Shown: positions 11,014 through 38,538 of the stretch, piece after piece
Layout: each line of letters opens with the position of its first letter
Position numbering within the stretch: the stretch's first letter is position 1
Source of the DNA: a bacterium
GTDB taxonomy: Bacteria > Sysuimicrobiota > Sysuimicrobiia > Sysuimicrobiales > Humicultoraceae
Direction: 5' to 3'
DNA length: 59,460 bases
Assembly: GCA_050695215.1 (NCBI GenBank)
Contig: JBOGSD010000013.1
Coordinates: 1 to 59,460 of the forward strand
Program-made: the position numbers and the translations under genes
The notes under the pieces: generated by a model
Databases searched by the model: none
Told to the model about the DNA's origin: nothing
Seen by the model: only the letters and a program-made list of their open reading frames with translations

Positions 11014-11030
11014 CACTACGACAAGAAGTG
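11014..11030. promoter_or_regulatory. Operator site 7: CACTAC-GACAA-GAAGTG
   Basis: Lies in the divergent intergenic region, 20 bp from the epimerase start (10994) and upstream of 11143. A TATATT -10-like hexamer is at 11036-11041. Confidence 0.5.
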
Positions 11031-11142
11031 TGTCATATATTTCCCCGGAGGCGAGGGGGACTCCCGCCCGCCGGCGCTGCATCTTCTGTTGAGGTGGAGG
11101 ACTGAGAATCGTACCCTGAACATTGGTGGAAGGGATGGCGAA

Positions 11143-12108
11143 GTGCTCAGGAAGCTGACGCTCATTGGGCTGTTAATCTTTCTGACCAGTCCGGCTCGGG
11201 CCGAGCCGATTGTGACGATCCGTGGCCATGTCCTCAACGGCACATTTGACCGGCGGCCGCTTCCCGGACGGTTCGTTCAAGTCGTCCGGATGAGCAGGGA
11301 AGGCGTCGTGATCGCGTCAGTCCGGACAAACGCCAACGGGGAATTCACCGCGAGGATACCCGAAAGCGACGGCACCTACGTCGTGGTCGCTCGCCATGGC
11401 GAGGTGGAGTACGCCAGTGAGCCGTTCCGGCTGAAACCCGGTCCCCCGGCGCGGATCAACGTCGTCGTGTACGAACCCACAACCCTCCGGCCGCCGCTCG
11501 TCTTTCCCTTTCGCATTGTCTTGATCGATCGTTTCGGGGCCGGCGTCATTTCCGTGCGAGAGGTCGTGGCCATTGCAAACCCATGGCCTCGCACATACAT
11601 CGGTCAACGTTCGCCGCAAGAGGGGTTCACGTTGACCCTGGCGTTGCCCCAAGGCGCCGAAGCGGTCGAAGTGCTGCGCGGTCTCGGGTCGGCGTCCCTC
11701 GAGAAAGGACGCCTCATCGACCGAGCCCCCTTGCAGCCCGGAGAGCACGAGATCGCGTATGCATACCAAGTCCGTTATTGGGGCACGAAAGCGCGGTTGA
11801 GGTGGGCGTTGGACGAGGACACCGGAAGCATGGATGTCTTCGCGCCCGACCAGGGTGAACGGCTCGCCAGCAATGTCCTAGAGGCCAAGCCTTCCGGCAT
11901 GGTCAAAGGGCAGCGATTCCTTCGCCTGGCCCGAGACGAGCTGCGCAGTGGTGAGGTCGTCGAAGTGATAGTGACGGGATTGCCGGGGAACTACTCGCCG
12001 GTCGTGCCCTTCCTGGCGATCGTGCTGGCGGTGGTCCTTTCAAGCAGCACGCTCATGGCGATCCGGAAGGCCAAGAAGGACCAGATCAGCTCGATGGCGT
12101 CCGACTGA
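11143..12108 (+). CDS. Membrane-anchored exported protein with carboxypeptidase-regulatory-like domain, paralog 2
   Basis: ORF 10966..12108. GTG 11143 gives signal peptide VLRKLTLIGLLIFLTSPARA. IRGHVLNGTF...NANGEFT. C-terminal TM helix. Confidence 0.6.
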   Translation: MLRKLTLIGLLIFLTSPARAEPIVTIRGHVLNGTFDRRPLPGRFVQVVRMSREGVVIASVRTNANGEFTARIPESDGTYVVVARHGEVEYASEPFRLKPGPPARINVVVYEPTTLRPPLVFPFRIVLIDRFGAGVISVREVVAIANPWPRTYIGQRSPQEGFTLTLALPQGAEAVEVLRGLGSASLEKGRLIDRAPLQPGEHEIAYAYQVRYWGTKARLRWALDEDTGSMDVFAPDQGERLASNVLEAKPSGMVKGQRFLRLARDELRSGEVVEVIVTGLPGNYSPVVPFLAIVLAVVLSSSTLMAIRKAKKDQISSMASD

Positions 12109-12784
12109 GCATCCTGACGATTTGCAAGAGCTGAGCGGCATGCTGGCCGAACAAGATATCGACCCGCTGGACACGGATCGCGCCCTGAGGGTCCACCACG
12201 ACAAAACCCATTTGGGCAACTCCCCTCATGCCCCCCATGGGTTGCCCCCGTTTCGGCAGCATATCGTAGCGCTCCGCCACCGCGAGATCACCGTCTAACA
12301 GTACCGGAAACGAGATCCCGGTGATCCGGAGGAGTCTGCGGGATTCCTCCGGCGTGTCCCTGTTCACCACATAAACGTCTGCGCGCTCACTGAGGACTTC
12401 CCTTTCCCTTGACCGCTGCAGCTCCACGAGCTGCTCGAGACAGAGCTGTCAGCCGACCCCCATGTGGAAAATGATCACGGTGGGGCGGCCCTTCCCCCGA
12501 GGGACGGTATGTTTCTCACCGTCGGCGGTGGAAAGTGCGAATGAGGGTGCCTGCCTCCCGACCAGGGTATTGACCTCCTGCGAGACCTCCCGTCCGCCGG
12601 CCGGACCCGGCAACCGTGTGTCCGTCGATTGCTGCTCGCCGCGCGATGCCAGCCAGATGCCTGCGACGAGGAGAGCGAGCACGATCGCCCCGCCCGCCCA
12701 CCAGGCGATCGAGGTCCTGGACCTGCGGCGTCCGCGCCGATGCTGCGGGGGCGAGCGCTTCACCCTGGCCTTTTGCGGGGTCAT
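12086..12784 (-). CDS. Membrane-anchored Prx/redoxin-like selenoprotein candidate (UxxC; Sec codon 12449-12451)
   Basis: ORFs 12449..12841 and 12086..12427 share one frame. Joined, they read VIIFHMGVG-U-QLCLEQLVELQRS...FPVLLDGDLAVAERYD. The TGA aligns to the first Cys of CQPC in paralog 26160..26780. ATG 12784 overlaps the cytochrome stop (ATGA). Confidence 0.7.
12418..12434 (-). promoter_or_regulatory. SECIS-like hairpin 14 nt downstream of TGA 12449-12451
   Basis: mRNA sense GCAGCUC-GUG-GAGCUGC: 7-bp stem with a GU-containing apical loop. Confidence 0.4.
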
Positions 12785-13284
12785 GGCTGTTTCTCCCCCG
12801 GGGAGCCGGTCTGCTCGCGCCTGCTCTCTCCCAGTTGCCATCGGCGGTGCTCTTGCGACCAGAGGCTCTTGAAGTAGGCGATCACGGCGCCGATCTCTTC
12901 ATCGCTAAGTTTGTCTTTGAAGGGCGGCATCGTAAGCTCCGGCGTCTTGTTGAACGGATCCCGCCAGCCATTCCGGATGATTTGGGACAACTCCTTGTCG
13001 CCGTGCCGCCACGTATGCCCGGTGTCATCGTGCGGCGGCGGCGGGAGATTGCCGCGAGCGTCCGGTTTGGTCCAGTCCGTGGCCCCTTCCGCGCGCGGTC
13101 CGTGACAGCTCGCGCAGGACTTCAGATATACCGCTCGCCCCTCAGCGACCTCCGCAGGATCGAGCGGAGGAAGTCTTCCCGATGTCGTCTCTGGACCGAG
13201 ACGCGTACAGGAGGTCAGGGCGAGGATCACCAGTATTAGCAAGAACAGCGAACCGAAGCCGAGCCCGTGTGGTCCGATTCTCAC
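12781..13284 (-). CDS. Monoheme c-type cytochrome lipoprotein, paralog 2
   Basis: LALTSC lipobox and CASCH heme motif. GTG start at 13284. Confidence 0.8.
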   Translation of the reverse strand: MRIGPHGLGFGSLFLLILVILALTSCTRLGPETTSGRLPPLDPAEVAEGRAVYLKSCASCHGPRAEGATDWTKPDARGNLPPPPHDDTGHTWRHGDKELSQIIRNGWRDPFNKTPELTMPPFKDKLSDEEIGAVIAYFKSLWSQEHRRWQLGESRREQTGSPGEKQP

Positions 13285-13307
13285 AGAACCCGCTGCGCCA
13301 AGGTTCT

Positions 13308-14216
13308 CTACTGCGTCACCTTCCGCCAGCTTATGCCGCCGCCCCGACTCGCCAGGAGCGTTCCGTCGGCGGCAATGGCGAAGAGGCGCTGCGGAAGGCG
13401 GGGGTGTTGTGCGAGCGCCGCCAGGCTTCCCGCCCCTGAGGGAAGAGTCACTGGGCGCCAGGTCCGTCCTGCGTCCGGGGAACGAAAGAGCCCGGCAGGG
13501 CCTGCGGCAAAGACCAGGCGCGGGTTGCGGAGATCGACAAGTACGGCGGCAGCCTCACTGGGGGTGGGCCACCGGCCCACCTGGCGCCACCCTCAGAAAC
13601 AATCCATGCTGATGTAGGGGCCCTCTTTGGTCCCGGCATAGAGCCAGCCGGTATTCATGCTGCCCTCGAGGGGCGAGTGCGCGAGCGCCAGGACCGGCTG
13701 TGCGGCGGGGCCGCCATCCATGCGCTGCCATCGCTGGCCGCTATCCTCCGTCCGGTACATCCCCTTTCCGCGCAGGGAGACAAAAAGGGTTGCGCGCCGG
13801 GAGGCGTGGATGGCCAAGGCCTCGACGTCCGTGGAGGAGAGCCCGGTGTTGATCTGCTGCCACGTGGCGCCGCTGTCCCGGCTCATGAGGACCCCTGCAC
13901 CGGGGCCGGCCGCGTATATTACGTCAGGCTTCTCTGGATTGACCACGACCTGGCTGACGCCGGTGGACGCAAAGCGGGCGGGAAGGGGAAGCGGCACCCA
14001 GCGACGCCCGCCGTCTTTACTGCGGAACAGCTGGGCCGAGGCGGCCTTGAGCAGATCGCCATTGCGCGGATCGACTGCAAGGCCGATTTGCGGGCGCCCC
14101 GGCGAAACAGACACGGGCGCCGCCACCCCGGAGGAACTCGATTCGCGCCTGTAGACGACGACAGCCCCCAGCAAGAGGAAGACCGCCAGGGACGCGATCA
14201 GGATGCGTGCCCTCAA
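13308..14216 (-). CDS. TM-anchored six-bladed BNR/Asp-box beta-propeller (Ycf48/sialidase-like) with in-frame TGA 13593-13595
   Basis: ORFs 13593..14369 and 13308..13580 share one frame. Asp-boxes: SKDGGRRW, SRDSGATW, TEDSGQRW, SMDCF-TGA-GW, SPDAGRTW, SRGGGISW. Start tentatively TTG 14216, overlapping the Rieske stop. Confidence 0.5.
13563..13581 (-). promoter_or_regulatory. SECIS-like hairpin 11 nt downstream of TGA 13593-13595
   Basis: mRNA sense GGUGGGCC-GGU-GGCCCACC: perfect 8-bp stem. Confidence 0.4.
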
Positions 14217-14884
14217 GCGATGCCCCCCGACTCGACGTCGGTGACCACGATCTGCTCGCCGCGGATCTCGTACAGGAACGTCCGCGGCGGGCGCGGCGCA
14301 GGGCCGGAAAGAACGCGGCCCGGCTGCTCGGGGTCTGCTGGATCGAAGATGGAGAGGTGGCAGGGGCACGCCATCAGGGCGTGCTGGCGCTCCTTGGGCG
14401 GCCTGTAGCCGCCATAGCCAGCCGTAACCTCTGCGTGGTTCGAGACATAGTTATAGATGCACCCCAAGTGGGGGCAGATGCGGGAGAAGACAATGAGATT
14501 GCTCTCTCGTCCAACAAACTCGGGTTTGTTAATGGCGCGGGCCCAGTCCCAAGGGAGCCTGACTTTCCCGGGCAGGCGGACCACCACTGCAGGCACGTTC
14601 GCCGAGCGCAGCCCTTCCGGCGTGTACTGCGGGTACTTCTGAGTGAATACGAAATACTTGAAGTCCCACGACCTCTGGACCTCGGACAGCGCCGCGGCGA
14701 CGGTCGTCTCCCCTCGAGGGATGTCGCGCACGGTAGGACGATACAGCACCTCAAATGGCTTCATGTTGGGTTTGAGCATCCTCAGGAGAGGCGATAAGAA
14801 GGCAGCGGCGGCGGCGACAAGCGGCAGGGACGTGACGAGTTTCAGGAAGCCGCGACGATCCAGGCCCTTTAGCTCCGTGGCCAT
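14213..14884 (-). CDS. Rieske [2Fe-2S] protein with Tat signal
   Basis: DRRGFLK twin-arginine signal. CPHLGC ... CPCH cluster motifs. Confidence 0.85.
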   Translation of the reverse strand: MATELKGLDRRGFLKLVTSLPLVAAAAAFLSPLLRMLKPNMKPFEVLYRPTVRDIPRGETTVAAALSEVQRSWDFKYFVFTQKYPQYTPEGLRSANVPAVVVRLPGKVRLPWDWARAINKPEFVGRESNLIVFSRICPHLGCIYNYVSNHAEVTAGYGGYRPPKERQHALMACPCHLSIFDPADPEQPGRVLSGPAPRPPRTFLYEIRGEQIVVTDVESGGIA

Positions 14885-14909: not shown

Positions 14910-14926
14910 CCTTACAGATTGTAGTG
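14910..14926. promoter_or_regulatory. Operator site 1: CCTTAC-AGATT-GTAGTG, overlapping the Rieske-operon promoter
   Basis: Minus sense TTGTCC(14942-14947)-N18-TACAAT(14918-14923). The operator overlaps the -10. RBS GGTGAGGAAGG precedes ATG 14884. Confidence 0.55.
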
Positions 14927-14967: not shown

Positions 14968-15873
14968 CTAAACCGGACAAACCGTCAAAATGGGGAAGAC
15001 ATTCAACGCCCAGACGAGCCCGTAGAGCCCGGCCGCCGGTCCCAGGACAACCGCCACTGCCACCCAGCTCTCGAGGAGCGCCCGAGGGGACGCTCCGGGC
15101 AGGTCCACGCCTCGCCCCAGCAGCAGTGAGAGCCGGACATCTGTCACGCTCGTGAAAGCGCTGGCCGGCGTGACAGCGGGCGCCGGGTTGAGGAGCTTGA
15201 GCATGGCAGAGGAGAGGCTGACCGAATCGCCAAGTCGCGCCAGGGCGTACTGGTCGGCGGCAAGCTCCAGGGCGGCCTGCTGTCGCACGGCCAGAGCCTT
15301 CGCAACGGGAAGATAGAAGAACCCGGCGGCCAGCGCCCTGGACACAAGCAGAGCCAGGGGGTCCCTGTGCACAGCATGGCTCGCCTCATGGAGGAGGACG
15401 GCTTCGAGCTCGCCTTCATCGAGGCGCTCGATCAGCCCGGTGGAAATGATGATCTTTGGCGCAAAGAGGCCCGCGGTGAGCGCGTATGGCCGGACGTCGC
15501 CGACGGCGACGACGTGATCCATCAACCCCAGCGTGTGGAGGACAGGGAGGAGCTCTAAGGGCAAGCCCACAGCGTGACGCCTGAGGGACCGGACATACCG
15601 CCACGTCTCCCACCATTTGCTCAGCGCGGCGGCGAGCCAGAAGACGGCGGCGGCCAGACCCGCCAGCATTACAACGACCGCCAAGCCCTGAACCACATCC
15701 GGCAGGACGCGCCACACACGGAGGCACATGTGGCCCAGCGCCGTCAAGGCTCCCCGGAAGGCCTTTGCGCCAAGCACGGCGGCCACGCCAAGGGCAAGAG
15801 AGGCCACGACGGACACGACCACGACGCCCCACAGCGCACGGACTGCCTCTTTACGGTAATCGGCTTGGTCCAC
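14968..15873 (-). CDS. M56-family (BlaR1-like) membrane metalloprotease without extracellular sensor domain
   Basis: 301 aa, multiple TM helices, LLHEASHAVHRDPLALL (HEXXH). Confidence 0.8.
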   Translation of the reverse strand: MDQADYRKEAVRALWGVVVVSVVASLALGVAAVLGAKAFRGALTALGHMCLRVWRVLPDVVQGLAVVVMLAGLAAAVFWLAAALSKWWETWRYVRSLRRHAVGLPLELLPVLHTLGLMDHVVAVGDVRPYALTAGLFAPKIIISTGLIERLDEGELEAVLLHEASHAVHRDPLALLVSRALAAGFFYLPVAKALAVRQQAALELAADQYALARLGDSVSLSSAMLKLLNPAPAVTPASAFTSVTDVRLSLLLGRGVDLPGASPRALLESWVAVAVVLGPAAGLYGLVWALNVFPILTVCPV

Positions 15874-15918: not shown

Positions 15919-15935
15919 CGCTACAAAGTCTAGTG
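15919..15935. promoter_or_regulatory. Operator site 2: CGCTAC-AAAGT-CTAGTG, upstream of the M56 gene
   Basis: Minus sense TTGACC-N18-TAGACT, with the operator over the -10. Confidence 0.5.
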
Positions 15936-15952: not shown

Positions 15953-16201
15953 TCAACGACGCGACTTCTTCGGCCTCCCCCAGGCGGCGGTCAGCACGAT
16001 GGCCGCGCCGGCCAACAGCATGCCCTGGGCCACGACGTTCCAGAGATGCTCGGTCAGGGCGATGCCCGTACCGTGAGCAGCAAGCACCGCGAACCCGCCG
16101 AGGATCGAGGTCCATCCGAGCGCCAGGACCAGCAGATGCCGCATGGCGTGAGGGCGGCGAGGGCTGAGCGCCATGCGAGAGCCTGATTTTGACCGAGGCA
16201 T
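15953..16201 (-). CDS. Small two-TM membrane protein
   Basis: 82-aa ORF with two hydrophobic helices, positioned inside the operon. Confidence 0.4.
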   Translation of the reverse strand: MPRSKSGSRMALSPRRPHAMRHLLVLALGWTSILGGFAVLAAHGTGIALTEHLWNVVAQGMLLAGAAIVLTAAWGRPKKSRR

Positions 16202-16210
16202 AAAGAGCGT

Positions 16211-16639
16211 TCAGATGTTAGGGCGCACGTCGACCGGGAAGGTCAGCCGGCCCGTTGAAGTCCCGCGACGGATGATCACTTCAAGCCAGGCAGGGCCAAC
16301 GTTCAGGAACTTGATTTCGGTCCGATAGACTCCAGGTGCGACGGGACTCGTCCTTGCCAGGTCCGGCCTCTGCCTCTCTGCCCCATACCGGAGGGTCACC
16401 CCGTCAACGGGGACAGAGCGCTGCCGGTTGTCGGTAAGCACTACCTCGACCGGAATTGGGCCGGTCCTTGGCGGGTCGGGGGCCATGCGGATCGTGACTT
16501 GCACCTGCGTGCCGGCCAGATCGACCGCCCCCGACCGGGGAGGGGTTTGGAGGACCGTGTTGAGCAGCGCCAGGCCCGCAAAGAGGATGACGCCGAAGCC
16601 CGCGAGGTAGACGACCTGTTTCCTCCGGCGCCCCTTCAA
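16211..16639 (-). CDS. TM-anchored FixH/YtkA-like domain protein
   Basis: 142 aa. N-terminal anchor, then a beta-rich domain (VQVTIRMAPDPPRTGPIPVEVVLTD...YRTEIKF). Confidence 0.45.
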   Translation of the reverse strand: MKGRRRKQVVYLAGFGVILFAGLALLNTVLQTPPRSGAVDLAGTQVQVTIRMAPDPPRTGPIPVEVVLTDNRQRSVPVDGVTLRYGAERQRPDLARTSPVAPGVYRTEIKFLNVGPAWLEVIIRRGTSTGRLTFPVDVRPNI

Positions 16640-16677
16640 CTCTCGATGCGAAGGGACGATGAGCTTTCTCCTCTAGG

Positions 16678-18630
16678 TTATGCCCGGCCGGGAGCCAGCC
16701 GCCGCCGCCCCGGAAGCACTGCGACAAGGGTGCCCGCGGTGATCACGCCAGCCCCCACCCAGATCCAGAACACGAGGGGATTCAGCAGGATCCGCAGGCG
16801 TGCCTCCCCTTCGATCACACCGCTGAAGATGACATACAGGTCGTCCCGAGGCGTCGATCTGAGACCTATCAAAGTCACGGGCTGCTGGGAGGCCAGGTGC
16901 ATGACTTGGGCCGGGCTGAGCTCGCCTAAGTCGCGGCCGGCGTTCGACACGGAGATCCGGGCAGCCATCCCGGCCCGGGTGCTGTCGCGATAGGGGATCA
17001 CCCCGTTGAGGGTCAGGCGGTACCGCCCGATCTGCACCTGGCCCCCCGGAGCGAGGCCCGTTTCGACCTGACGCGAAAACGCGGAGGAGGCCGTGATCCC
17101 CACGACCATCAACAGCACGCCGACGTGGACGATGTAGCCTCCGTATCGCTGCGGGTTCACGCGAAGCAGGGAGAAAACGCCTCCAGCCATCCCCTCGCCA
17201 AGGCGCCGCCGAGCCGCGAGTCCGCGGCCGAACTCACTGAGCGTGATGGCGACAACGAAGACCGATAGTACGAAACCGCTCAGGGCCGCAGGCTTGCGGA
17301 TGCCGAAGACGATCAGGACCACGCCTGCGGCCGCGGCCAGCATCCCCGCCGCGTAGAGCCTCCGGCCGAGGCGGGCGGGGGACTCCTGCACCCATGGGAT
17401 ATGCGTGCCGATGCCCATCAGCAGGAGCGTCAACAGGGCAATGGGCACGAAGACCTGGTTGAAGTACGGCGGCCCGATGAAGATCTTGATGCCCTTGACG
17501 GCCTCGTAGAGCATAGGGAAGGTCGTGCCCAGGAATACGGTCGCAGCGGCGGCGGTGAGCACGACGTTGTTGAACAGGAACGAGGCCTCCCTGGAAAGGA
17601 GGGACTCCAGGTAGTTGTGCTCGCGCAGCCGGTCCATGCGCGCCAACAGCAGGCCAAGAGTCGCCGTCATGGCGACGGCGAGGAAGATCACGAAAACCGG
17701 GCCGATCGAGGACCGGGCAAAAGAGTGGACGGAGGACACCACCCCGCTGCGCGTCAAGAATGTTCCGAAGATCGAGAGGCCGAACGCCACGATGATCAGC
17801 CCAAGGTTCCAGACGCTCAGCATGCCGCGGCGCTCCTGCACCATCACCGAATGCAGGTAGGCGGTCATCACGAGCCAGGGCATAAACGCGGAGTTCTCAA
17901 CAGGGTCCCACCCCCAGTATCCGCCCCACCCCAGGACGTGATAGGCCCACCACCCCCCGATCGTCAGGCCCATGCCCAGGAAGTACCAGCTCATGATGGC
18001 CCACCGGCGCATGCTTCTGAGCCACTCCTCGCCCAGCTCCCCCGTGATGAGCGCGGCCACGGCGAAGGCGAAGGGGACGGTGATCCCCACGTAGCCCAGG
18101 TACAGCGTGGGGGGATGGATGAACATCCCCGGATCCTCGAGGAGCGGGTTCAGGTACCGCCCGTCCGCCGGGGGAAAGGGGAGTCTGTCAAACGGGTTCG
18201 ACACGCTTGAGAGAAGAAGGAGAAAGAAGGCCAGCACGCCCATGAGGACCGCGATCACGTAGGGCATCAGGCGCTTGTGCCGGTCACGATTGATCAGCAC
18301 GACCGCCGCGCCATAGAGGCTGAGGATCCAGGCCCACAGGAGGAGTGAGCCGTCCATACTCCCCCAGAAACCGGAGATCCGGTACGCCAGAGGGGTGGAG
18401 AGGTTGGTGTTCTCGGCGACATAGCTGACCGAGAAGTCGCGCCCGATGAAGCTCCCCACCAGGATCGCCGACGCCACCGTCAGAAGGAACGCGATCGCAA
18501 TCACTCCCCGCCGGGCTCCGATGAGGAGGGGCTCGTGGGCGCGCCGGGCCCCGGCCACCGCGGCCGTGATCGCGTACGCGCTCGTGACGAGGCTGGCGAG
18601 GACCGCGAAGTATCCGAGATCCGCCATCAT
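16678..18630 (-). CDS. ccmF: Cytochrome c-type biogenesis heme lyase CcmF/NrfE family
   Basis: 650 aa, polytopic. W-rich motif WGGYWGWDPVENSAFMPWL. Confidence 0.85.
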   Translation of the reverse strand: MMADLGYFAVLASLVTSAYAITAAVAGARRAHEPLLIGARRGVIAIAFLLTVASAILVGSFIGRDFSVSYVAENTNLSTPLAYRISGFWGSMDGSLLLWAWILSLYGAAVVLINRDRHKRLMPYVIAVLMGVLAFFLLLLSSVSNPFDRLPFPPADGRYLNPLLEDPGMFIHPPTLYLGYVGITVPFAFAVAALITGELGEEWLRSMRRWAIMSWYFLGMGLTIGGWWAYHVLGWGGYWGWDPVENSAFMPWLVMTAYLHSVMVQERRGMLSVWNLGLIIVAFGLSIFGTFLTRSGVVSSVHSFARSSIGPVFVIFLAVAMTATLGLLLARMDRLREHNYLESLLSREASFLFNNVVLTAAAATVFLGTTFPMLYEAVKGIKIFIGPPYFNQVFVPIALLTLLLMGIGTHIPWVQESPARLGRRLYAAGMLAAAAGVVLIVFGIRKPAALSGFVLSVFVVAITLSEFGRGLAARRRLGEGMAGGVFSLLRVNPQRYGGYIVHVGVLLMVVGITASSAFSRQVETGLAPGGQVQIGRYRLTLNGVIPYRDSTRAGMAARISVSNAGRDLGELSPAQVMHLASQQPVTLIGLRSTPRDDLYVIFSGVIEGEARLRILLNPLVFWIWVGAGVITAGTLVAVLPGRRRLAPGRA

Positions 18631-19052
18631 GGTCGGAATGCGTCGGCTGGGCCGCTCGGAGCCGTGCGCGTCCAGCGGCGGAGGGTGGAGATGGCGATGG
18701 CCGCCGCCAGGACAAGGACGGCGAACGGCCCGATCCAGACGATGAGGCTCAACCCTCGTTTGGGCGGCGCCGCCAGGATGGACTCACCGTACCGGCTCAC
18801 GAAATAGGTGATGATTTCTTCTGGGCTCTTGCCCTGCTTGAGTTTGTCCCTGATAAGAGCCCGCATCTGCTCGGCCAGTTCTGCGTTCGATTCCGCGACG
18901 GTTTGGCCTTCGCAGACCGGGCACATCAGCCGACCGGAGATCTCCCAGACGCGCTCATCCAGCGTCTGGGCACCAGAGCGTTCAGCAGAGAGCAGCCAGG
19001 CGAGAGCGGTCACCAAGACCACAAGCGACAGCACGCGTTGGAGACTCCTCAT
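18627..19052 (-). CDS. ccmH: Cytochrome c-type biogenesis protein CcmH
   Basis: LMCPVCEGQTVAESNAELA...SPEEIITYFVSRYGESIL followed by a TM helix. Confidence 0.8.
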   Translation of the reverse strand: MRSLQRVLSLVVLVTALAWLLSAERSGAQTLDERVWEISGRLMCPVCEGQTVAESNAELAEQMRALIRDKLKQGKSPEEIITYFVSRYGESILAAPPKRGLSLIVWIGPFAVLVLAAAIAISTLRRWTRTAPSGPADAFRP

Positions 19053-19579
19053 CGGGACGCGCTGCCGGACAAGAGCGGCTCCACGTTGCTGATGATGAGC
19101 TCCCGCGTGACAGGCCCCAAGTGCTTCAGGGCAATCCGTCCCGAGCGGTCGATGAAGAAGGTCTCGGGGATCCCGGTCACTCCGTAATCCTGCAGGATCT
19201 TCCCGCTGAGGTCAGGTCCGTTGGGATAGGTTTTGCCGAACTCCCGAATCATGGCCAGCGCGTCCTGTTGCCGGTCCCAGATATTCACCCCGACCAACAC
19301 CAGCCCGCGGGGGCGATAGGTCACCCACGTCCATTGCAGGACAGGTGACTCCTGCTTGCAGGCGGTGCACCAGGATGCCCAAAAGTTGATGAGAACAACT
19401 CTGCCGCGAAGGTCCGCCAGACGGAGGCGGTCGCCTTCGAACAGGTCGAGCGTGAAGTCGGGCGCCGGCGCGCCGACCAGCGGCGTGCTCCACGGCGGCT
19501 TCTCGCGGGCCACGCCCAGCGCCAGAACCGCCAGAACGGCGGCCAGGGCCCCCAGGACGGCCGCCCTTTGCCAGCGCAT
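19049..19579 (-). CDS. Thiol:disulfide oxidoreductase, DsbE/CcmG/ResA-like
   Basis: INFWASWCTACKQESP thioredoxin motif with an N-terminal anchor. Confidence 0.8.
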   Translation of the reverse strand: MRWQRAAVLGALAAVLAVLALGVAREKPPWSTPLVGAPAPDFTLDLFEGDRLRLADLRGRVVLINFWASWCTACKQESPVLQWTWVTYRPRGLVLVGVNIWDRQQDALAMIREFGKTYPNGPDLSGKILQDYGVTGIPETFFIDRSGRIALKHLGPVTRELIISNVEPLLSGSASR

Positions 19580-19596
19580 GCGCTGCGCGCCTAAGT

Positions 19597-19878: not shown

Positions 19879-19895
19879 CTCATCCCCTCCCGTCC

Positions 19896-21796: not shown

Positions 21797-21813
21797 CACT
21801 ACAGACTTTAGTG
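21797..21813. promoter_or_regulatory. Operator site 3: CACTAC-AGACT-TTAGTG, in the divergent blaI-like/copCD region
   Basis: Minus sense TTGACA(21829-21834)-N18-TAAAGT(21805-21810). Plus sense TTGACC(21779-21784)-N17-CAGACT. The operator overlaps both -10 elements. Confidence 0.6.
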
Positions 21814-21883
21814 TTATAGGGAGAAATGTGTCAATGGCAATGGACAGGAATTGCCGCGTTTGACCCGTCCGAAAGGAGACATC

Positions 21884-24954: not shown

Positions 24955-24961
24955 CGAGCCT

Positions 24962-27540: not shown

Positions 27541-27576
27541 TCGGTGTCTGCTGCCAGAAACACGGAGGAGCGACCC

Positions 27577-30168
27577 ATGGACACCGCCACGGCCGGAGCG
27601 CCAAAAAGTGCGACCCTGCCGGTGGAGGGGATGTCGTGCGCGTCGTGCGTGCACACGATCGAGACGGCGCTCTCGAACCTTCCGGGCGTGGCGAAGGCCA
27701 CCGCGAGCCTCGGCGCGGAGAAGGCCTTCGTCGAATACCTTCCCGGCGTTACCAGCCTCCGCCAGATGGAAGAGGCGATCACGGCGGTCGGGTACCGGGT
27801 GGCCAGAGAGACCGTCACGTTCACGCTCCGGAGGATCTCGTGGCCTGGTGACGTGAGCAAGATCGAAAGCCGGATCGGCGCCCTTGGGGGAGTCGCGCAG
27901 GTGGCCGTCGACCACGGCACCGGCGCCGTCAAGGTCGAGTACTACCCGGGGGCGATTACCCCCGCCGAGGTCGGGCGGGCACTCCGGGACCTCGGCTACG
28001 AGCCCGAGGAGCGGCGGGAGGGCATCGCGGCAGCAGACCGCGAGCGCGAGGCGCGCCAGCGTGAGATCCGGCGCCAGGCCCGGAACATGCTCGTCGCCTG
28101 GCCGCTCAGTCTGCTGGTGATGTTCGGCACCTTCCGCGACTACTTTCCCTGGGGCCTCGGTGCTCTGCTGCCCGAGGGCCTCGGCAACCGCTTCCTCCTG
28201 TGGGCCCTGACGACGCCGGTCGTGTTCGGGCCGGGCTGGCAGTTTTTCGTACGCAGTTACCGTGGCCTCCGCCACGGCGTCACGGACATGAACCTCCTCT
28301 ACGCAGTCGGGATCGGCACCGCGTACCTCATCGCCGTCCTGAACACGGTCTTCCCTCGCGCCGGCTTCGGCGGCCCGCAGGCCACGTTCTTCGAGGCCGC
28401 CGCGTTGCTCACCGCGTTTATCGTCCTGGGCCGCTACCTGGAGGCCCTGACGCGGGGGCGGACCTCCGAGGCCATCCGCAGGCTGATGGGCCTCCAGCCC
28501 AAGATGGCGCGCGTCCTCCGCGAGGGCGGGGAGGTTGAGATCTCGGCAGATGAGGTCGAGGTCGGCGACACCGTGGTCGTCCGCCCCGGGGAGCGCATTC
28601 CGGTGGACGGCATCGTGCTCGAGGGTTACTCCGCCGTCGACCAATCCATGCTCACCGGCGAATCCCTGCCCGTAGAGAAACAGGCAGGTGACGAAGTCAT
28701 CGGCGGCACCATCAACAAGACCGGGGCATTCAAGTTCCGGGCCACAAAGGTGGGGAGGGATACGGCCCTCGCCCAGATCATCAGGCTCGTCGAGGACGCG
28801 CAGGCCAGCAAGGCGCCGCTGCAGCAGATGGCCGACACGGTGGCAGGCTACTTCATCCAGGGGGTCCTGGTCCTGGCGCTGGCCGCCTTCCTCTTCTGGT
28901 TCTTCGTCGGCTACCAGGCCTACTTCGACCCGGCGACGCGTTTCGTCCTGACGCCGTACACCCTGGGCCAGGTGGGGGTCTTCGGGTTCGCCCTCCTGCT
29001 CAGCGCGACCGTCCTGATCATCTCCTGCCCTTGCGCCGTGGGGATCGCGACCCCCAGCGCCATGATGGCCGGGATCGGCAAGGGCGCGGAGCACGGCATC
29101 CTGTTCAAGGGCGCCCGCGCGATCGAGGCGACAAGCCGGCTGCAGATGGTGGTTTTCGACAAGACGGGGACGCTGACCCGGGGGGAACCGTCCGTGACGG
29201 ACGTGCTGCCGGCCGAGGGCATCCGCGAGGCGGAACTGCTGGGCTTCGCGGCGGCCGTCGAGGTGAACTCGGAACACCCGCTGGGTGAGGCCATCGTCCG
29301 CGGCGTCCGGCAGCGCGGGCTGCCGGTCGAGGAGGCCGAACGGTTCAACGCCATCCCCGGGCACGGTGTGGAGGGCCGGCACGGCGGCCGGGAAGTCCTG
29401 CTGGGCAACCGGAAGTTGATGACGACCCGCGGGGTACAGATCGGCCATCTCGAAGCCCACGCCGTCCGGCTGGAGGAGGAGGGCAAGACGGTCATGTTCG
29501 TGGCGGTCGATGGCCGCGCGGCCGGGCTCGTCGCCGTGGCGGACACGCTAAAGGAGTATTCGGTGGACGCCGTCCGCCGGCTGCAGCGGCTTGGACTCAA
29601 GGTGGCCATGATCACCGGGGACAACCAGCGCACGGCGGCGGCGATCGCCCGGCAGGTCGAGATCGACCGGGTGCTGGCCGAGGTGCTGCCGCAGGACAAG
29701 GCGGAGGAGGTCAAGAGGCTGCAGGCGCAGGGCCTCCGCGTTGCCATGGTCGGCGACGGCGTGAACGACGCCCCGGCACTGGCCCAGGCGGACGCGGGCA
29801 TCGCCATCGGCAGCGGTACGGACGTCGCCAAGGAGACGGGCGAGGTGATCCTGATCAAGGACGACCTGCGCGACGTCGTCGTGGCCATCGAGATCGCCCG
29901 CCGCACGATGGGCAAGGTGAAGCAGAACCTCTTCTGGGCGTTCATCTACAACCTGACGGGCATCCCCATCGCCGCCGGCGTGCTCTACCCCGCGCTCAAG
30001 CTCATCGTCAGCCCCGAACTGGCAGCCTTCTTCATGGCCACGAGCTCCGTCTCCGTGACCCTGAACACGCTGCTGCTGAAACGGTACGTCCCCTCAATCA
30101 AGCGGGTTGGACCGACGCCCAGGCGGGGGCAGCCGGCGCCCGTGCCCGCCACGGCAGGGAGCGAGTAG
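27577..30168 (+). CDS. copA: Cu(I)-translocating P1B-type ATPase CopA
   Basis: ORF 27544..30168. ATG 27577 follows GGAGGA. HMA domain GMSCASC, plus a second HMA-like domain without CxxC. SCPCAVG, DKTGTLT and GDGVNDAP motifs. Confidence 0.9.
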
Positions 30169-34601: not shown

Positions 34602-34618
34602 CACTACACTCCGTAGTA
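34602..34618. promoter_or_regulatory. Operator site 6: CACTAC-ACTCC-GTAGTA
   Basis: TTGACC(34581-34586)-N18-TACACT(34605-34610). It is 228 nt upstream of PBP2 ATG 34846. Confidence 0.45.
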
Positions 34619-34845
34619 AAAGCGGCGGTAATCTCTGTCGACGGCCGGATGGCCTCGACGTGCGGAAAACGCCTGCCCTGGATAGCTAGGAATTTCTGGA
34701 ACCAGATCCACAGTTCGCCCGCGACCCGCACCAGCAGACATGAGATCGCGTGCATGGAGCGAGGCATTCGATGCCTGGTCGAGGCTCAAGCAGAAGCGCA
34801 TGGCGTCCTCGCGAAGGAGTCCCCGGTACGTCAGGTGGCCCGTCG

Positions 34846-36624
34846 ATGAGATCTCCGGAACATAAAGGAGCGGGGGCCCGCCTTTCGGCGTTTGGCGTCG
34901 TCATCCTGCTACTGTTCGGCCTTCTGGCCGGCCGGCTCTGGCAGCTGCAGGTGCTGCAGGGCTCGAATTACCAGAGACTCTCCGAGGAGAACCGGCTCCG
35001 GGACCTCCGGTTGCGGGCCCCCCGCGGCATTATCTATGACCGCAAGAGACGGCCGCTGGCTTCCAACCGGCCGGCGTTCACCATCTCCGTGCTGCCAATG
35101 GAGCTTCGCGACCAGAAGAACGTCCTTCCCCGCCTTGCTGGCATTCTACAAATCCCGGAAGGAGAGATCCGCGATCGGCTGAGTGAGGCCCGCGGCCGCC
35201 CATTCGAGCCCGTCCGCATCCGTCGTGATGCGCCGAAAGCCATCGTCGCGATGATTGAGGAGAACCGGCTTGACCTGCGGGGCGTGATCGTCGAGGTTGA
35301 ACCCGTGCGGTTCTATCCGGAGGGCACGCTCGCGGCCCATACCCTTGGCTACGTCAGCGAGATTAGCCGCTCAGAGCTGGGGCTTCGCGTGTGGAAGGGC
35401 TACCGGATAGGAGACGTGATCGGCAAGGTCGGGATTGAACGCTTCTATGATCGGACGCTGCGCGGTCGGGACGGTCGGGTGCGAGTCGAGGTGGACGCCC
35501 GCGGACGCCCCCTCCGGATCCTCGCGCGCGACCCCTCAGATCCGGGCCGGTCAGCGGTGTTAACGATTGACCGTGACATCCAGCGGGCCGCGGAGGAGGC
35601 CCTTGGCGATCGAGTAGGAGCTCTGGTGGCCCTCGATCCAAGGAACGGCGAGATTCTGGCCATCGCCAGCCATCCCGCCTTCGACCCCAATCTGTTCGCG
35701 GCGGGGATCTCCGCACGAAAGTGGGCAGGACTGATGGGCGACCCTGCCCGCCCGCTTCTGAACAGGGCTGTCGACAGCGCCTACGAACCGGGTTCGGTCT
35801 TCAAGGTCGTCACAGCAGCCGCGGCGTTGACGCAGCGCACCGCAACCCGGGAGACTCGGGTTCACTGCCCGGGCTTCTTCAGGCTGGGCAGATCCATCTT
35901 CCGGGACCTGAAGGCCTATGGGACTGTCGACTTCGTGACAGGGGTGGCCGTATCGTGCAACGCCTTCTTTTGGACGCTGGGGCTGCGTACCGGCCCCGAG
36001 GCCCTTTCTCAGATGGCGCGAGCACTCGGGCTAGGAGAGCCGACAGGGATCGACCTCCCGTCTGAAAGCCCCGGCTTCATCCCCTCGATGAATTGGAAGC
36101 GACGGACGTTGGGCGAGGCGTGGTATCCGGGGGACACCTTGAACATGGCGATCGGCCAGGGATGGGTGCAAACAACGACTCTCCAAATCGCACGCATGGT
36201 GGCGGCTGTTGGTAATGGGGGAACGCTCGTACACCCGCATCTGGTCCGGGAAGTCCTGGACACGGACGGCCGCGTGGTCGAGCAGGTGACGGCTCCTCCG
36301 AATGGAAGGGTGGACTTTCCTCCCGATGCATTGGCGACGCTGCGCGATGCGCTGGAAGCAGTGGTGCTCCGAGGGACGGGCCGGCGGGCCGCCATCCCGG
36401 GGCTGACGATTGCCGGCAAGACGGGCAGCGCCGAGAACCCGCACGGTCAGCCTCACGCGTGGTTTGCTGCCTACGCCCCCGCCGAGCAACCCCGTATCGC
36501 TGTCGCTGTGCTCGTCGAGCATGGCCGGCGCGGAGGGCTCGTAGCGGCACCTATCGCCAGGGCTGTGCTGCAGGTGGCTCTCCAGATTCCGCCATCCCCC
36601 GAGGCGGGCGCGCCGCCCAGGTGA
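34846..36624 (+). CDS. mrdA: Penicillin-binding protein 2 (class B transpeptidase)
   Basis: ORF 34750..36624. TM anchor, then RLWQLQVLQGSNYQRLSEENRLR; SVFKVVT (SxxK); KTGSAE (KTG). Confidence 0.85.
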   Translation: MRSPEHKGAGARLSAFGVVILLLFGLLAGRLWQLQVLQGSNYQRLSEENRLRDLRLRAPRGIIYDRKRRPLASNRPAFTISVLPMELRDQKNVLPRLAGILQIPEGEIRDRLSEARGRPFEPVRIRRDAPKAIVAMIEENRLDLRGVIVEVEPVRFYPEGTLAAHTLGYVSEISRSELGLRVWKGYRIGDVIGKVGIERFYDRTLRGRDGRVRVEVDARGRPLRILARDPSDPGRSAVLTIDRDIQRAAEEALGDRVGALVALDPRNGEILAIASHPAFDPNLFAAGISARKWAGLMGDPARPLLNRAVDSAYEPGSVFKVVTAAAALTQRTATRETRVHCPGFFRLGRSIFRDLKAYGTVDFVTGVAVSCNAFFWTLGLRTGPEALSQMARALGLGEPTGIDLPSESPGFIPSMNWKRRTLGEAWYPGDTLNMAIGQGWVQTTTLQIARMVAAVGNGGTLVHPHLVREVLDTDGRVVEQVTAPPNGRVDFPPDALATLRDALEAVVLRGTGRRAAIPGLTIAGKTGSAENPHGQPHAWFAAYAPAEQPRIAVAVLVEHGRRGGLVAAPIARAVLQVALQIPPSPEAGAPPR

Positions 36625-36668: not shown

Positions 36669-37313
36669 CTAGCGGGCTGCTGAACCGCCCGGAGGGACAA
36701 CCAACGAAAGTCGTGCAGGGCCGGAGACAGCATTCGCCTGCCCGGCGCGCCACGCTCCCCAGACGGCCCCGCCGGCCAGCAGCGCGATGCTGACCGGGAT
36801 GAGGTAGACGCGGAGCGCGATCAGCGCCAGGACCGAGTTGGCGCCCAGGACGATCGCCACCGTGGGGACGCAGCAGGTGAATCCCGTCAAGAGGCTGGGG
36901 AGGGATCCAAGGAACCCCGAGACCGTACTCCGCCGGCAGGCGTACTGCGCTCTGAACTGATGAACCGCCAGCGAAAGGTTGACGCCAACGAGGATGGCGA
37001 GCAGGAGCCCCAACAGCAGGTTTGGCACAGCCAGCAGGATCACAAGCCGCGGTGTCAGGTACAGCGCGGCGACGGGTTCGTACGCATAAGGCGCGATCGC
37101 CCGCCAGAGCTTGAGCGGCCAGTCCGGCGCCACCTGGAACGCGGGAAAGCCCGGTAGAGGGACGGTAGCCGCGCGCAAATACACAATGTGTTGGATGCTG
37201 TACAGGTACATCAGCAGGTAGAGGAGCGCGGTAATCAGGACGATCCGGCGGTACGTCGGGAGCCTGAAGACGTGCGCGAACTGGCGACCGGCGATCGAGA
37301 GCACGCCGGTCAT
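36669..37313 (-). CDS. Polytopic membrane protein with an intramembrane vicinal Cys pair (TCCVP)
   Basis: 214 aa. LPSLLTGFTCCVPTVAIVLG. Its start overlaps the DUF3179 stop. Confidence 0.45.
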   Translation of the reverse strand: MTGVLSIAGRQFAHVFRLPTYRRIVLITALLYLLMYLYSIQHIVYLRAATVPLPGFPAFQVAPDWPLKLWRAIAPYAYEPVAALYLTPRLVILLAVPNLLLGLLLAILVGVNLSLAVHQFRAQYACRRSTVSGFLGSLPSLLTGFTCCVPTVAIVLGANSVLALIALRVYLIPVSIALLAGGAVWGAWRAGQANAVSGPARLSLVVPPGGSAAR

Positions 37314-38476
37314 CGCCCCTCCACCTGAGGGACGAAGAGCCTAGTCGCCGGGAAGAAAGCGTACCAGGCGAACCACATCACGTCGAACGTGTTGATCCCC
37401 ATCAATTGAGCCCCCCGGAGCTTCCCTTTGAGAGCTTGCCCGCGAGGCGACCAAGTGGTGCCCGTCTGGCGATCAGCGACGACGTCACCGCGGCGCTCGA
37501 ACTGCAAGACCTTCCCCTCAAGCCGGCGCGAGTAGACTCGCACCGTGTCGAGGGCGCTGTCGTACAGCACCACGATGGGCTCTTCCCCTATGTCTGTGTT
37601 GGACACCTCGACCTTTCGCATGGCGTCCTTCGGGATGGCCAGTTGCTCCCCGTTGTGCTTGATCCCCATGACGACGTGCTTCATCGGCAGGCGGTCGCTG
37701 CGGTGCATGATCGGGAAGAACGGCCCGCCCGTGAAGTAGTAGTTATTCCCGGGCCGACGGTACGAGCCGTACGGATCCTGCCCGTACGCCCGGATATGGC
37801 CGGTCTCCCTAGAGAGAACCAGCGTGTTCGGATAGAGGCGCTTCCACCGTTCCCACGTCGTCCACACGACCGGAAACTCCTCCAGCGTGGCACCTTTGAG
37901 ACGGCCCTGAATAGCGACCCCGAGGACCTGCGGCCAGTTGCTGTCCGTCGGCCGATCATACATGAGCAGGTTGCTGTTGACCAACATGCCGGAGGTGCCC
38001 AAGGTCAGGGGCTTGCCGTCGACGATCGGCGACCGGCCCCGGAAGCCGACAGCGGATCCTGTCAGCGGGCAGTAGGTGAGGGACGCCTGCTCGCCGCCGA
38101 AGGTATCGTTGACGATCTCGTGCCAGACCAGGATGATCTGCGGGAAGGCTTTGACCTCGCCCTTGTAGTCCACCCCGAAGACCACGTCCTCCGGGACGAG
38201 GAACTTATCCGCCTCGGCCGCGGAGGTATACTTGGGTCGGTCGATCGGAGGAATCCCGTCCTTCGGCGGGCCGCCCCGGATGACGTTGCTGGCGAAATCG
38301 TCAAGCGTCGGCAGCTTGCCGGCCGCAAGCGCCTGGGCTCGACGCCAGCGGTCGGGGCCGAGGATCGAGAAGAACGTCCCTCTGGTGAGCGCAAGAGCGA
38401 CCAGACCGGCAGCGCTGAGCCCGCCAAGGAGAAAGGCCCTGCGGGTGATTTCGGCGCCGTCCTTCACCGGCATCAC
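37310..38476 (-). CDS. DUF3179-domain protein with Tat-like signal
   Basis: RRAFLLGGLSAAG signal. GGPPKDGIPPIDRPKY...AFPQIILVWHEIVND...TYCPLTGS. Confidence 0.75.
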   Translation of the reverse strand: MMPVKDGAEITRRAFLLGGLSAAGLVALALTRGTFFSILGPDRWRRAQALAAGKLPTLDDFASNVIRGGPPKDGIPPIDRPKYTSAAEADKFLVPEDVVFGVDYKGEVKAFPQIILVWHEIVNDTFGGEQASLTYCPLTGSAVGFRGRSPIVDGKPLTLGTSGMLVNSNLLMYDRPTDSNWPQVLGVAIQGRLKGATLEEFPVVWTTWERWKRLYPNTLVLSRETGHIRAYGQDPYGSYRRPGNNYYFTGGPFFPIMHRSDRLPMKHVVMGIKHNGEQLAIPKDAMRKVEVSNTDIGEEPIVVLYDSALDTVRVYSRRLEGKVLQFERRGDVVADRQTGTTWSPRGQALKGKLRGAQLMGINTFDVMWFAWYAFFPATRLFVPQVEGR

Positions 38477-38521
38477 CTCTTACCATCATAAACCACAGGG
38501 AGGGCCCCGAAATTCCCGGAC

Positions 38522-38538
38522 CGCTACGCTATGTCGTG
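38522..38538. promoter_or_regulatory. Operator site 8: CGCTAC-GCTAT-GTCGTG, in the divergent DUF3179/DUF881 region
   Basis: 10/12 match to the consensus half-sites. Core promoter elements are not clear here. Confidence 0.4.

Follow-up and report, generated by a model that had tools for sequence, protein, structure and literature searches.

The stretch analysed here, called the window below, is a 59,460-base piece of contig JBOGSD010000013.1 (positions 1 to 59,460, forward strand; assembly GCA_050695215.1) of a bacterium of the Humicultoraceae (Sysuimicrobiota), and within it a 17-bp palindrome, (a)CACTAC-N5-GTAGTG(t), recurs in a gene cluster that encodes a BlaI-family (Penicillinase_R) repressor of 142 amino acids (21334..21762, minus strand) and an M56 (BlaR1-like) zinc metalloprotease of 301 amino acids (14968..15873, minus strand). 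Sequence comparison makes it very likely that this palindrome is the operator of the repressor at 21334-21762 and that it controls a regulon of envelope copper and thiol/disulfide proteins. A search for CACTAC-N5-GTAGTG with at most two mismatches returned eight matches in the window, all of them within one 27.5-kb stretch and all with the coordinates and sequences listed in the original prediction, whereas 100 dinucleotide-preserving shuffles of the window, whose G+C content is 67%, averaged 0.58 matches, peaked at 4 and in none of the 100 cases reached eight. Since the consensus had been derived from the same eight sites, an external matrix was made as a non-circular test from 58 unique sites, the best in each 150 bp upstream of repressor orthologs, taken from other genomes only. 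The top eight matches of this matrix over both strands of the window were exactly the same eight sites, seven scoring 14.2–25.4 bits and the site at 38522 scoring 7.4 bits, with the next-best match at 4.5 bits. Markov-simulated windows gave an expectation of 0.155 matches of at least 10 bits per window; simulation from the window's own non-coding composition put the expectation at 0.006 matches for a threshold of 14 bits and at 0.18 for one of 7 bits, and about 270 kb of unrelated control loci held no matrix match of 12 bits or more. Because seven of the eight copies that had been proposed score at least 14 bits and the last 7.4 bits against these expectations, the seven sites are real beyond reasonable doubt, and the eighth is marginal and stands on its context. 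The matrix found no match in the ordinary coding sequence of the window, which answers the check on coding density that had been suggested with the prediction, and none of the eight sites lies there: seven are intergenic, and the site at 27495 falls in the last 15 or so codons of the merR frame, directly upstream of copA. A repeat or mobile element as the source of the palindrome was rejected, as the part shared between the copies is a 17–21-bp core and the flanks are unrelated.

Operator 1 (CACTACGACAAGAAGTG, 11014..11030; one mismatch, 14.2 bits) lies between a divergent epimerase operon on the minus strand and a CarboxypepD_reg-like gene on the plus strand, at distances of 20 nt to the epimerase ATG (10994) and 113 nt to the likely GTG start (11143); operator 2 (CCTTACAGATTGTAGTG, 14910..14926; 22.6 bits) lies upstream of a Rieske-like operon; operator 3 (CGCTACAAAGTCTAGTG, 15919..15935; 18.9 bits) upstream of the M56 protease gene; operator 4 (CACTACAGACTTTAGTG, 21797..21813; 23.6 bits) in the gap separating the repressor operon (−) from copCD-DUF881 (+), with the ATG of the repressor 35 nt away; operator 5 (CACTACTTTATGTAGTG, 24931..24947), a perfect palindrome with zero mismatches and 25.4 bits, upstream of a Trx/CcdA-like/redoxin operon; operator 6 (CACTACATTCCGTAATG, 27495..27511; 25.0 bits) upstream of copA, inside the 3' end of the merR frame; operator 7 (CACTACACTCCGTAGTA, 34602..34618; 21.8 bits) upstream of a stand-alone gene for penicillin-binding protein 2 (PBP2); and the marginal operator 8 (CGCTACGCTATGTCGTG, 38522..38538; 7.4 bits) between DUF3179 (−) and DUF881 (+). 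The context of operator 8 is given by related loci described below: in L001 the DUF881 ortholog has two upstream sites, in L004 the DUF3179 ortholog has one, and the GTCGTG half-site found in operator 8 is a common variant in L002. The statement that every site lies upstream of a gene start is kept with two provisos, namely that the copA site is inside the merR frame and that the PBP2 start is distant from its operator.

Repressor, promoter geometry and conservation of the sites

The repressor is the first gene of a long operon and matches PF03965, which combines an N-terminal winged-helix domain with a C-terminal helical dimerisation domain, with 86.7 bits against a cut-off of 22.6, above the gathering score, over residues 26-141 of the 147-amino-acid open reading frame. 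It has no cysteine at all, hence neither a CxC hook nor a C-terminal CxCxxxxCxC Cu(I)/Zn site, and it scores well short of the NCBIfam cut-offs for CopY/TcrY, BlaI and MecI; its best NCBIfam match, the CopY_TcrY model TIGR02698, reaches 42.7 bits against a cut-off of 121.95. By these profiles it is an unnamed member of PF03965. The family had been proposed as BlaI/CopY, of which the membership in PF03965 stands and the likeness to CopY does not: CopY membership was rejected on the missing cysteines, on the score below the family cut-off and on an operator that differs from the cop box. Among solved structures the nearest is 2G9W, the BlaI of Mycobacterium tuberculosis (E 1.5e-9), followed in order by B. 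licheniformis BlaI, S. aureus BlaI, MecI and L. lactis CopR.

With the repressor protein as query, 80 related loci were fetched from species genomes, labelled Armatimonadota, Bacillota (Paenibacillus, Cohnella, Sporosarcina, Lysinibacillus and clostridial metagenome-assembled genomes, MAGs) and Trueperaceae. The palindrome, with at most two mismatches, occurs within 150 bp upstream of the repressor ortholog in 68 of these 80 loci, compared with 0.76% of random 150-bp windows of the same loci, and at 11 of its 12 positions the predicted recognition helix FNTVMTVMNRLV shows at least 80% conservation across the 80 orthologs, in keeping with the near-constant half-site. In the window the operator at 21797-21813 overlaps the −10 element of the repressor's own promoter, and this putative autoregulatory site is conserved in the orthologous loci. 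Together with the conserved target sites described below, it supports the proposal that the eight sites form a clustered regulon of the repressor at 21334-21762.

A consensus scan for sigma-70-like promoters detected five promoter-like sites between 10.9 and 28 kb, four of which coincide with operators, and one more at the PBP2 operator; five operators thus overlap the −10 element or the spacer of a scan-predicted promoter. The operator lies over the −10 element at 14910 (TTGTCC-N18-TACAAT, 14947>14918, minus), at 15919 (TTGACC-N18-TAGACT, 15956>15927, minus), at 21797 (the repressor's own promoter, TTGACA-N18-TAAAGT, 21834>21805, minus) and at 34602 (TTGACC-N18-TACACT, 34581-34610, plus), and at 24931 it fills the spacer of TTGACA-N16-TG-n-TAGACT exactly (24927-24954, plus). 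These five had all been named in the original prediction; the sixth element named there, TTGACG-N17-TAATGT (27484-27512, plus), whose spacer and −10 are spanned by the operator at 27495, is present in the sequence and falls below the threshold of the scan. In Bacillales orthologs the left half-site and spacer usually read CACTACAAT, so that the operator itself contains a TACAAT −10 hexamer. Since the operators cover the −10 element or the −35/−10 spacer, the predicted layout fits a repressor that occludes the promoter.

Conservation of the targets was assessed by tblastn of 31 window proteins against the fetched loci, combined with the matrix scan. In L002, whose repressor is 70% identical, the order is repressor-redoxin-CcdA-93aa-redoxin-142aa-M56-ICMT-Rieske, and sites were detected in front of copCD (25.0 bits; position 7144), a copC/COX2 unit (27.7 bits), the Rieske-like gene (17.7 bits; position 15198) and BNR (10.8 bits), with half-sites that include CACGAC/GTCGTG variants. 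A site lies between DUF3179 and the repressor gene in L004 and before the 142-amino-acid gene in L010; the Bacillota MAGs L007, L008, L011 and L012 carry sites before the repressor gene and before ccdA-redoxin. The Bacillales have a compact unit in the order repressor-M56-site-target; the targets at this second site (n = 43) are DUF2231 in 20, DoxX/MauE in 8, DsbA-like thioredoxins in 5 and CcdA in 3, and among the divergent neighbours (n = 23) pirins number 11. On account of these second-site targets, the family-wide theme is, as far as gene content tells, envelope thiol/disulfide chemistry, to which the Armatimonadota-like relatives and L013 add copper genes (copCD, copA, copC/YHS/cupredoxin). 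The check on conservation suggested with the prediction thus found sites upstream of orthologous targets in L001, L002, L004 and others, and by the same comparison the membership of the putative regulon varies between relatives. The operator matrix is usable for regulon prediction in Bacillota and Armatimonadota.

Tandem operators were also observed in relatives, where two or three lie 20–24 bp apart on one promoter, as at 9931/9955 in L007, 8395/8415/8522 in L008 and 9840/9863/9963 in L028; the window has single sites. This spacing fits the four-protomer arrangement proposed for BlaI_0696 of C. thermocellum. In addition, L001 and L002, the two closest relatives with enough upstream DNA for the comparison, have a small gene of 111–125 amino acids between the operators and the repressor gene (1439-1774 in L001, 9601-9978 in L002), which is absent from the window.

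Relation to known BlaI-type systems

By its pair of families and its promoters the locus is, judged from its sequence, of the BlaI/BlaR1 kind in an atypical, sensor-less form. The nearest described pair is BlaI (Rv1846c)/BlaR (Rv1845c) of M. tuberculosis, with which it shares the closest solved structure (2G9W), autoregulation, a similar recognition helix (YTTVMAVLQRLA, compared with FNTVMTVMNRLV in the window), a 6-N5-6 operator with a nearly identical right half-site and a sensor-less protease of about 316 amino acids. The mycobacterial operator reportedly reads TAC[GT]AC-N5-GT[AC]GTA. Of 80 loci fetched with the 2G9W sequence, 74 were full-length and were scanned for it, and it was found upstream of the BlaI gene in 71 of the 74, with 4 further matches in about 244 kb elsewhere; among the Mycobacteriales, the sites read TACGAC-N5-GTAGTA in 69 loci and TACTAC-N5-GTAGTA in 2. 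The window motif is accordingly placed, on sequence likeness, as a close variant of the mycobacterial BlaI operator class, with [TC]AC[GT]AC half-sites 5 nt apart. The two systems differ in the half-site, TACGAC in M. tuberculosis and CACTAC in the window, and in the protease, as the mycobacterial BlaR is without the loop cysteine and the C-terminal cysteine described below; their targets differ as well, those of M. tuberculosis BlaI reportedly being blaC, ATP synthase genes and sigC.

The second comparison is with PetR/PetP, the copper switch between cytochrome c6 and plastocyanin in Synechocystis, which likewise joins a BlaI-type repressor without the CopY copper site to a sensor-less M56 protease of about 280 amino acids and four transmembrane helices, and in which copper is the signal and cleavage takes place at a conserved Phe. 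PetP degrades PetR only with copper, PetR binds GAC-N5-GTC, and Met53 and Met58, conserved residues of the PetP outer loop, are the proposed copper ligands (bioRxiv 10.1101/2020.07.31.226407). The operator core of PetR (GAC-N5-GTC, or GACA-N3-TGTC) has the spacing found in the window. The window protease fits PetP in size and hydropathy, and the conserved soft-ligand residues of both would lie in the outer loop before the protease-linked helix, a correspondence made by residue numbering only. Unlike the window, PetP has two Met loop ligands and no Cys, and PetR, which also activates, has a four-gene regulon without copper export or thiol-redox genes.

The classical BlaI-BlaR1 and MecI-MecR1 systems of S. 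aureus and B. licheniformis resemble the window in combining PF03965 with PF05569, in a repressor that sits on the promoter and is autoregulated and in a protease gene that belongs to the regulon; MecI in addition has a PBP gene, mecA, as its target, and its scissile N101|F102 aligns with Q|F in the repressor of the window. When extracellular loop 1 (EL1) of S. aureus BlaR1 is displaced from its sensor domain, helix alpha3 relays this to the protease (PMC9834060), and EL1 precedes the helix that enters the protease domain, the same place as the loop around Cys50 in the window. The differences are that the M56 protein of the window is without the C-terminal penicillin-binding (SxxK) sensor domain, that there is no beta-lactamase, that TACA-N3-TGTA lies inside a 17-bp dyad, compared with the TACA/TGTA operators of bla and mec, and that eight promoters are concerned and not one or two. 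CopY/CopR of Firmicutes share the fold family, the control of copA-type exporter genes and a TACA...TGTA core; CopY differs in sensing Cu(I) directly through a C-terminal Cys motif that is absent from the repressor of the window, in having no protease partner and in its operator, as the window and the orthologous sites have TACA-N3-TGTA and not the cop box, which is given as TACANNTGTA in PMC7253601 and is one base shorter than the window core. CenIR of C. difficile, PvmSR of P. aeruginosa and BlaI_0696 of C. thermocellum are further BlaIR pairs without a beta-lactam domain that answer envelope-related or unknown signals; BlaI_0696 is autoregulated and recognises inverted GTCTAT half-sites 5 nt apart. 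Their half-sites and regulons are other than those of the window, and none is reported to control copper or thiol/disulfide genes. The spacing of the palindrome, described in the original prediction as different from that of the cop box and bla operator, does differ from that of the cop box (TACA-N2-TGTA) and is not novel, the 6-N5-6 form being present in the mycobacterial BlaI loci, in PetR and in BlaI_0696.

The searched literature gave no description of a BlaI/M56 regulon that joins CcdA, DoxX, thiol-disulfide and copper genes, and nothing relevant on CACTAC/GTAGTG with BlaI; by that literature the operator variant and the breadth of its occurrence, the number and kind of genes in the regulon and the near-invariant loop cysteine appear to be new. 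With seven to eight promoters the putative regulon would be large for a BlaI type, for which one to three are usual. A 2026 survey states that about 94% of BlaR-like proteases are without a beta-lactam sensor and that their ligands are not predictable (PMC13492132), and the locus and its relatives would give a testable answer to what one large subfamily of sensor-less M56 proteases senses, since its outputs would be envelope thiol/disulfide and copper proteins and its one conserved non-catalytic residue is a Cys in the putative signalling loop. The same module occurs in culturable Paenibacillus, Cohnella, Sporosarcina and Lysinibacillus and is therefore testable without growing the source organism; Paenibacillus taichungensis and Lysinibacillus composti are examples, with the unit blaI-M56-site-DUF2231/DoxX/DsbA-like.

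M56 protease, proposed signal and alternative readings

The protease matches PF05569 with 45.2 bits against a cut-off of 31 and carries a HEASH motif. Its hydrophobic segments lie at about 16-34, 56-84 and 265-283, there is no PF00905 match, and the blaR1_generic model gives 15.6 bits against a cut-off of 400; because the chain ends 18 residues past the last transmembrane helix, the protein has no sensor domain. Among 70 M56 orthologs H162, E163, H166, E203 and D207 are invariant, and Cys50, present in 93%, is the sole other strongly conserved polar residue; it lies in a segment of about 20 residues directly before the helix into the protease domain, within His-Met-Cys in the window. Cys50 and Cys299 are the only cysteines of the window protein, and the L001 and L002 proteins likewise have only the loop and the C-terminal cysteine. 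A protease search over 1.84 billion cluster representatives (50% identity) gave 1,466 proteins at E <=1e-10; of 135 near-full-length representatives, all with invariant catalytic residues, 123 have the loop cysteine and 87 have a cysteine within the last ten residues, for which we would estimate, from typical Cys content, a rough chance level of 10–15%. Among non-Bacillales orthologs 12 of 12 have a cysteine in the last 8 residues. An M56 gene is present in 75 of the 80 repressor loci, in most of them directly after or overlapping the repressor gene.

Computation supports the set of operators, their tie to this repressor family, their overlap with promoters and the gene content of the regulon. 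In the proposed mechanism a repressor dimer would sit on the −10 element or the −35/−10 spacer of seven promoters, and probably of the eighth, and would block RNA polymerase; its own promoter would be among those occupied, which would give negative autoregulation, and the promoter of its M56 partner would be another. The activated protease would cut the repressor in its dimerisation helix, at the Q|F pair aligned with the MecI scissile bond, and such a cut would free all the promoters together, whereby the protease would come under positive feedback and the repressor under negative feedback. Two complete relays of reductant from CcdA to an anchored thioredoxin, VKOR, CcmF/CcmH, cytochrome c and the Rieske protein would be released, and so would CopCD, CopA, a Met/His-rich membrane protein, two DUF881 proteins, DUF3179 and the stand-alone PBP2. 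Derepression through proteolysis by M56 is probable by analogy with BlaI/BlaR1, M. tuberculosis BlaI/BlaR and PetR/PetP. As to the signal, regulon content and the conserved outward-facing cysteines suggest extracytoplasmic copper and/or thiol oxidation, a proposal for which we judge the chances to be about even; it would be read by Cys50, in the outer loop matching BlaR1 EL1, together with the C-terminal Cys299, and the induced CcdA/thioredoxin-like relays may reset the sensor. For copper-dependent loss of the repressor in particular, the part of the regulon that speaks in favour is copCD, copA and the Met/His-rich protein. A wider and rather doubtful extension is that a whole subfamily of sensor-less M56 proteases (about 1,466 clusters at 50% identity) might sense envelope redox state or copper directly through the loop Cys, paired in about two-thirds of them with a C-terminal Cys, with oxidation or Cu(I) bridging activating cleavage and reductants resetting it, as a thiol homeostat. 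The C-terminal Cys would then take the place of the lost penicillin-binding domain, and in this lineage copper export, the maturation of cytochrome c and a PBP2 duplicate would also have come under the homeostat.

Several observations weigh against parts of this reading. By score alone the site at 38522 is not significant, and regulon membership is uneven, as no site was detected upstream of the copA or CarboxypepD_reg ortholog in L004 or of the DUF3179 ortholog in L014. The PBP2 start lies about 229 nt from the operator at 34602, and the PBP2 site is not footprintable because there is no positional ortholog. At the presumed scissile bond the repressor orthologs vary, with Q, H or P before it and F or M after it. 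The M56 gene and the repressor gene are not neighbours in the window, the former lying on the same strand 5.5 kb and nine genes downstream, and the topology of the protease is derived from hydropathy and analogy. For the signal in particular, most Bacillales orthologs are without the C-terminal Cys, no copper genes were found in the 20-kb Bacillales loci examined, and mycobacterial BlaR has no loop Cys.

The operator and repressor might be as described and the signal be a beta-lactam or cell-wall damage, with PBP2 as the key output, which we regard as improbable. In its favour, the family first became known as a beta-lactam switch, a PBP2 gene stands behind an operator-bearing promoter, and M. 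tuberculosis BlaR, which is also without the sensor domain, reportedly answers beta-lactams; against this, the 301-residue protease has no PF00905 sensor domain, no beta-lactamase is encoded in the cluster, at least 10 of the roughly 30 genes predicted to be regulated are thiol/disulfide or copper genes, and only about 6% of M56 proteins have a beta-lactam domain (PMC13492132). Equally unlikely is that the M56 protein is no anti-repressor here but a general, HtpX-like quality-control protease that happens to lie within the regulon, as might be thought from its separation from the repressor gene in the window and from the M48/HtpX models, which match it nearly as well as M56 does; yet the two genes are adjacent or overlapping in most relatives, about 96% of M56 genes have a BlaI-like gene no more than 5 genes away (PMC13492132), and PetP, which matches the M56 protein in size and topology, cuts PetR directly. 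It is very improbable that the repressor itself senses the signal, binding Cu(I) and leaving the DNA as CopY does, with no part for M56: the shared Pfam family, the copper exporter genes among the targets and the CopY_TcrY model as best NCBIfam match speak for it, whereas the repressor has no Cys and no CxCxxxxCxC motif, the CopY_TcrY score lies far below its cut-off, the operator has TACA-N3-TGTA and not TACA-N2-TGTA, and the M56 gene accompanies the repressor in nearly all loci. Least probable of all is that the palindrome is bound by another factor such as the MerR protein (27040-27540), or is an AT-rich promoter feature or a chance occurrence, since its overlap with −10-like hexamers (TACAAT, TAGACT), by which conservation could partly be that of promoters, and the presence of a merR gene in the cluster are set against a full 6-N5-6 dyad in 68 of 80 genomes, most without a MerR-like gene in the locus examined, a different dyad in merR's own promoter and a chance expectation of 0.006.

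Genes behind the putative operators

Under the preferred reading, in which the repressor at 21334-21762 occupies these operators, the target genes fall into the units described here. The gene map was made from Pfam, NCBIfam and sequence inspection, which bore out all gene assignments of the original prediction, and of the roughly 30 genes concerned at least 10 encode thiol/disulfide or copper proteins.

To the left of operator 1, the minus-strand unit at 6312..10994 comprises genes for an NAD-dependent epimerase, an SPW-VKOR fusion and a glycogen-phosphorylase-like (GlgP-like) protein, assigned by Pfam. The SPW-VKOR fusion (570 amino acids, 8110-9822, minus) lies downstream of the epimerase; VKOR is a disulfide-forming analogue of DsbB, and with it the putative regulon would include both oxidising and reducing thiol pathways. 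On the other side, the CarboxypepD_reg-like exported protein (11143..12108, plus; Pfam) has a signal-peptide-like N-terminus after the GTG at 11143. The unit behind operator 2 (12086..14884, minus; Pfam and open reading frames) encodes a Rieske-like protein with a Tat signal, one or more BNR/Ycf48-like proteins, a cytochrome c and a redoxin. The last of these, an anchored redoxin of the AhpC/TSA type (12086-12841, minus), has one in-frame TGA at 12449-12451 in the context GVG-TGA-QLC; it stands for the first Cys of CxxC, as the U of U-x-x-C, and the protein may be a selenoprotein. A check for a selenocysteine insertion sequence (SECIS) gave a GCAGCTC/GAGCTGC hairpin about 16 nt past the TGA that is no more stable than shuffled sequence (z = −0.57), and the window has no tRNA-Sec or sel genes.

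The repressor gene is followed at 15953..21309 (−) by genes for a redoxin (CGPC), CcdA, a Met/His-rich 93-amino-acid protein, a second redoxin (CTAC), CcmH, CcmF and two proteins of 142 and 82 amino acids of unknown family, recognised by Pfam, membrane anchors and CxxC motifs; their gaps are at most 38 nt or they overlap, and the order is the same in L001, L002 and L010. The 93-amino-acid protein (19597-19878, minus), encoded between ccdA and a redoxin gene and conserved in L001 and L002, has two transmembrane helices and a tail rich in Met and His (8 and 5 residues, with MMMRGMGGMQHGTGSMSHHGM among them), and it looks like a small Cu(I)-binding membrane protein. CcmF and CcmH (16678-19052, minus), of System I cytochrome c maturation, accompany CcdA and a CcmG-like redoxin; neither CcmE nor CcmABCD is recognisable in the cluster, and the 142- and 82-amino-acid genes nearby have no family match.

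On the plus strand, a CopC-CopD fusion with a likely start at GTG 21885 and a DUF881 gene occupy 21851..24882 (Pfam and sequence). Behind operator 5, the unit at 24962..26780 (+) encodes a thioredoxin-like protein (CTHC), a 7-transmembrane CcdA-like protein and an anchored redoxin (CQPC), as seen from Pfam and from transmembrane and CxxC analysis. The 7-transmembrane protein (312 amino acids, 25225-26163, plus) has no Pfam match; BLASTP against the CcdA of the window gave E 2e-4 with both Cys positions aligned, and it has Cys doublets (APCC, SCCTP) where CcdA has single active cysteines. The likely start of the thioredoxin-like gene, GTG 24962, is 8 nt after the −10 hexamer (within 24949-24964), and its mRNA would therefore have no leader or almost none.

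CopA, a P1B-type ATPase with HMA domains (27544..30168, plus; Pfam and N-terminus), follows the gene of the MerR-family regulator (27040..27540, plus), whose open reading frame ends at 27540. The merR promoter (26979-27010) is of the textbook MerR type, with TTGACA, a 20-nt spacer that holds the dyad TTCCAG-N4-CTGGAA, and TATACT, and after the conserved Cys the merR frame continues for about 40 codons and crosses both the copA promoter and operator 6. From this arrangement copA probably has two inputs, operator 6 and read-through from the MerR-type promoter upstream of merR, which would join a cytoplasmic and an envelope sensor.

PBP2 (PBP_dimer and transpeptidase domains by Pfam), encoded at 34750..36624 (+), stands alone; its called product has 592 amino acids, and its start would thus be near 34846. 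Its closest homologs in a large protein database (68–74% identity, five proteins on seven contigs) are labelled Armatimonadota, and all five lie in mreB-mreC-pbp2-rodA operons in which a gene of 169–205 amino acids without a Pfam match occupies the mreD position; none of the seven contigs has an operator upstream of the PBP2 gene, and species genomes and JGI metagenomes gave only PBP2 relatives of at most 40% identity. The PBP2 gene of the window is without mreB, mreC and rodA neighbours, no relic of mreD was found upstream of it, and the Rfam scan found nothing in its long leader. From its neighbourhood it looks like a relocated or duplicated copy behind a BlaI-type operator, which recalls mecA under MecI and would be the second case, after mecA, of a PBP gene behind an operator of the BlaI family.

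At the right-hand end of the cluster, DUF3179 and a 214-amino-acid membrane protein are encoded at 36669..38476 (−; Pfam), a pair conserved in L014, and the second DUF881 gene at 38622..39368 (+; PF05949, E 8.5e-37) is 53% identical to its L001 ortholog, the one that lies downstream of two sites. The Rfam scan of the window returned a single RNA gene, a tRNA-Met (CAT) at 39747-39821 (−), which borders the regulon cluster and the secY-containing block. The right-hand 19 kb have zero sites and hold co-directional genes of the size of a ribosomal-protein operon, including secY, whose product is 80–83% identical to those of two uncultivated MAGs, one of them carrying the label Armatimonadota, and does not exceed 57% identity with anything else.

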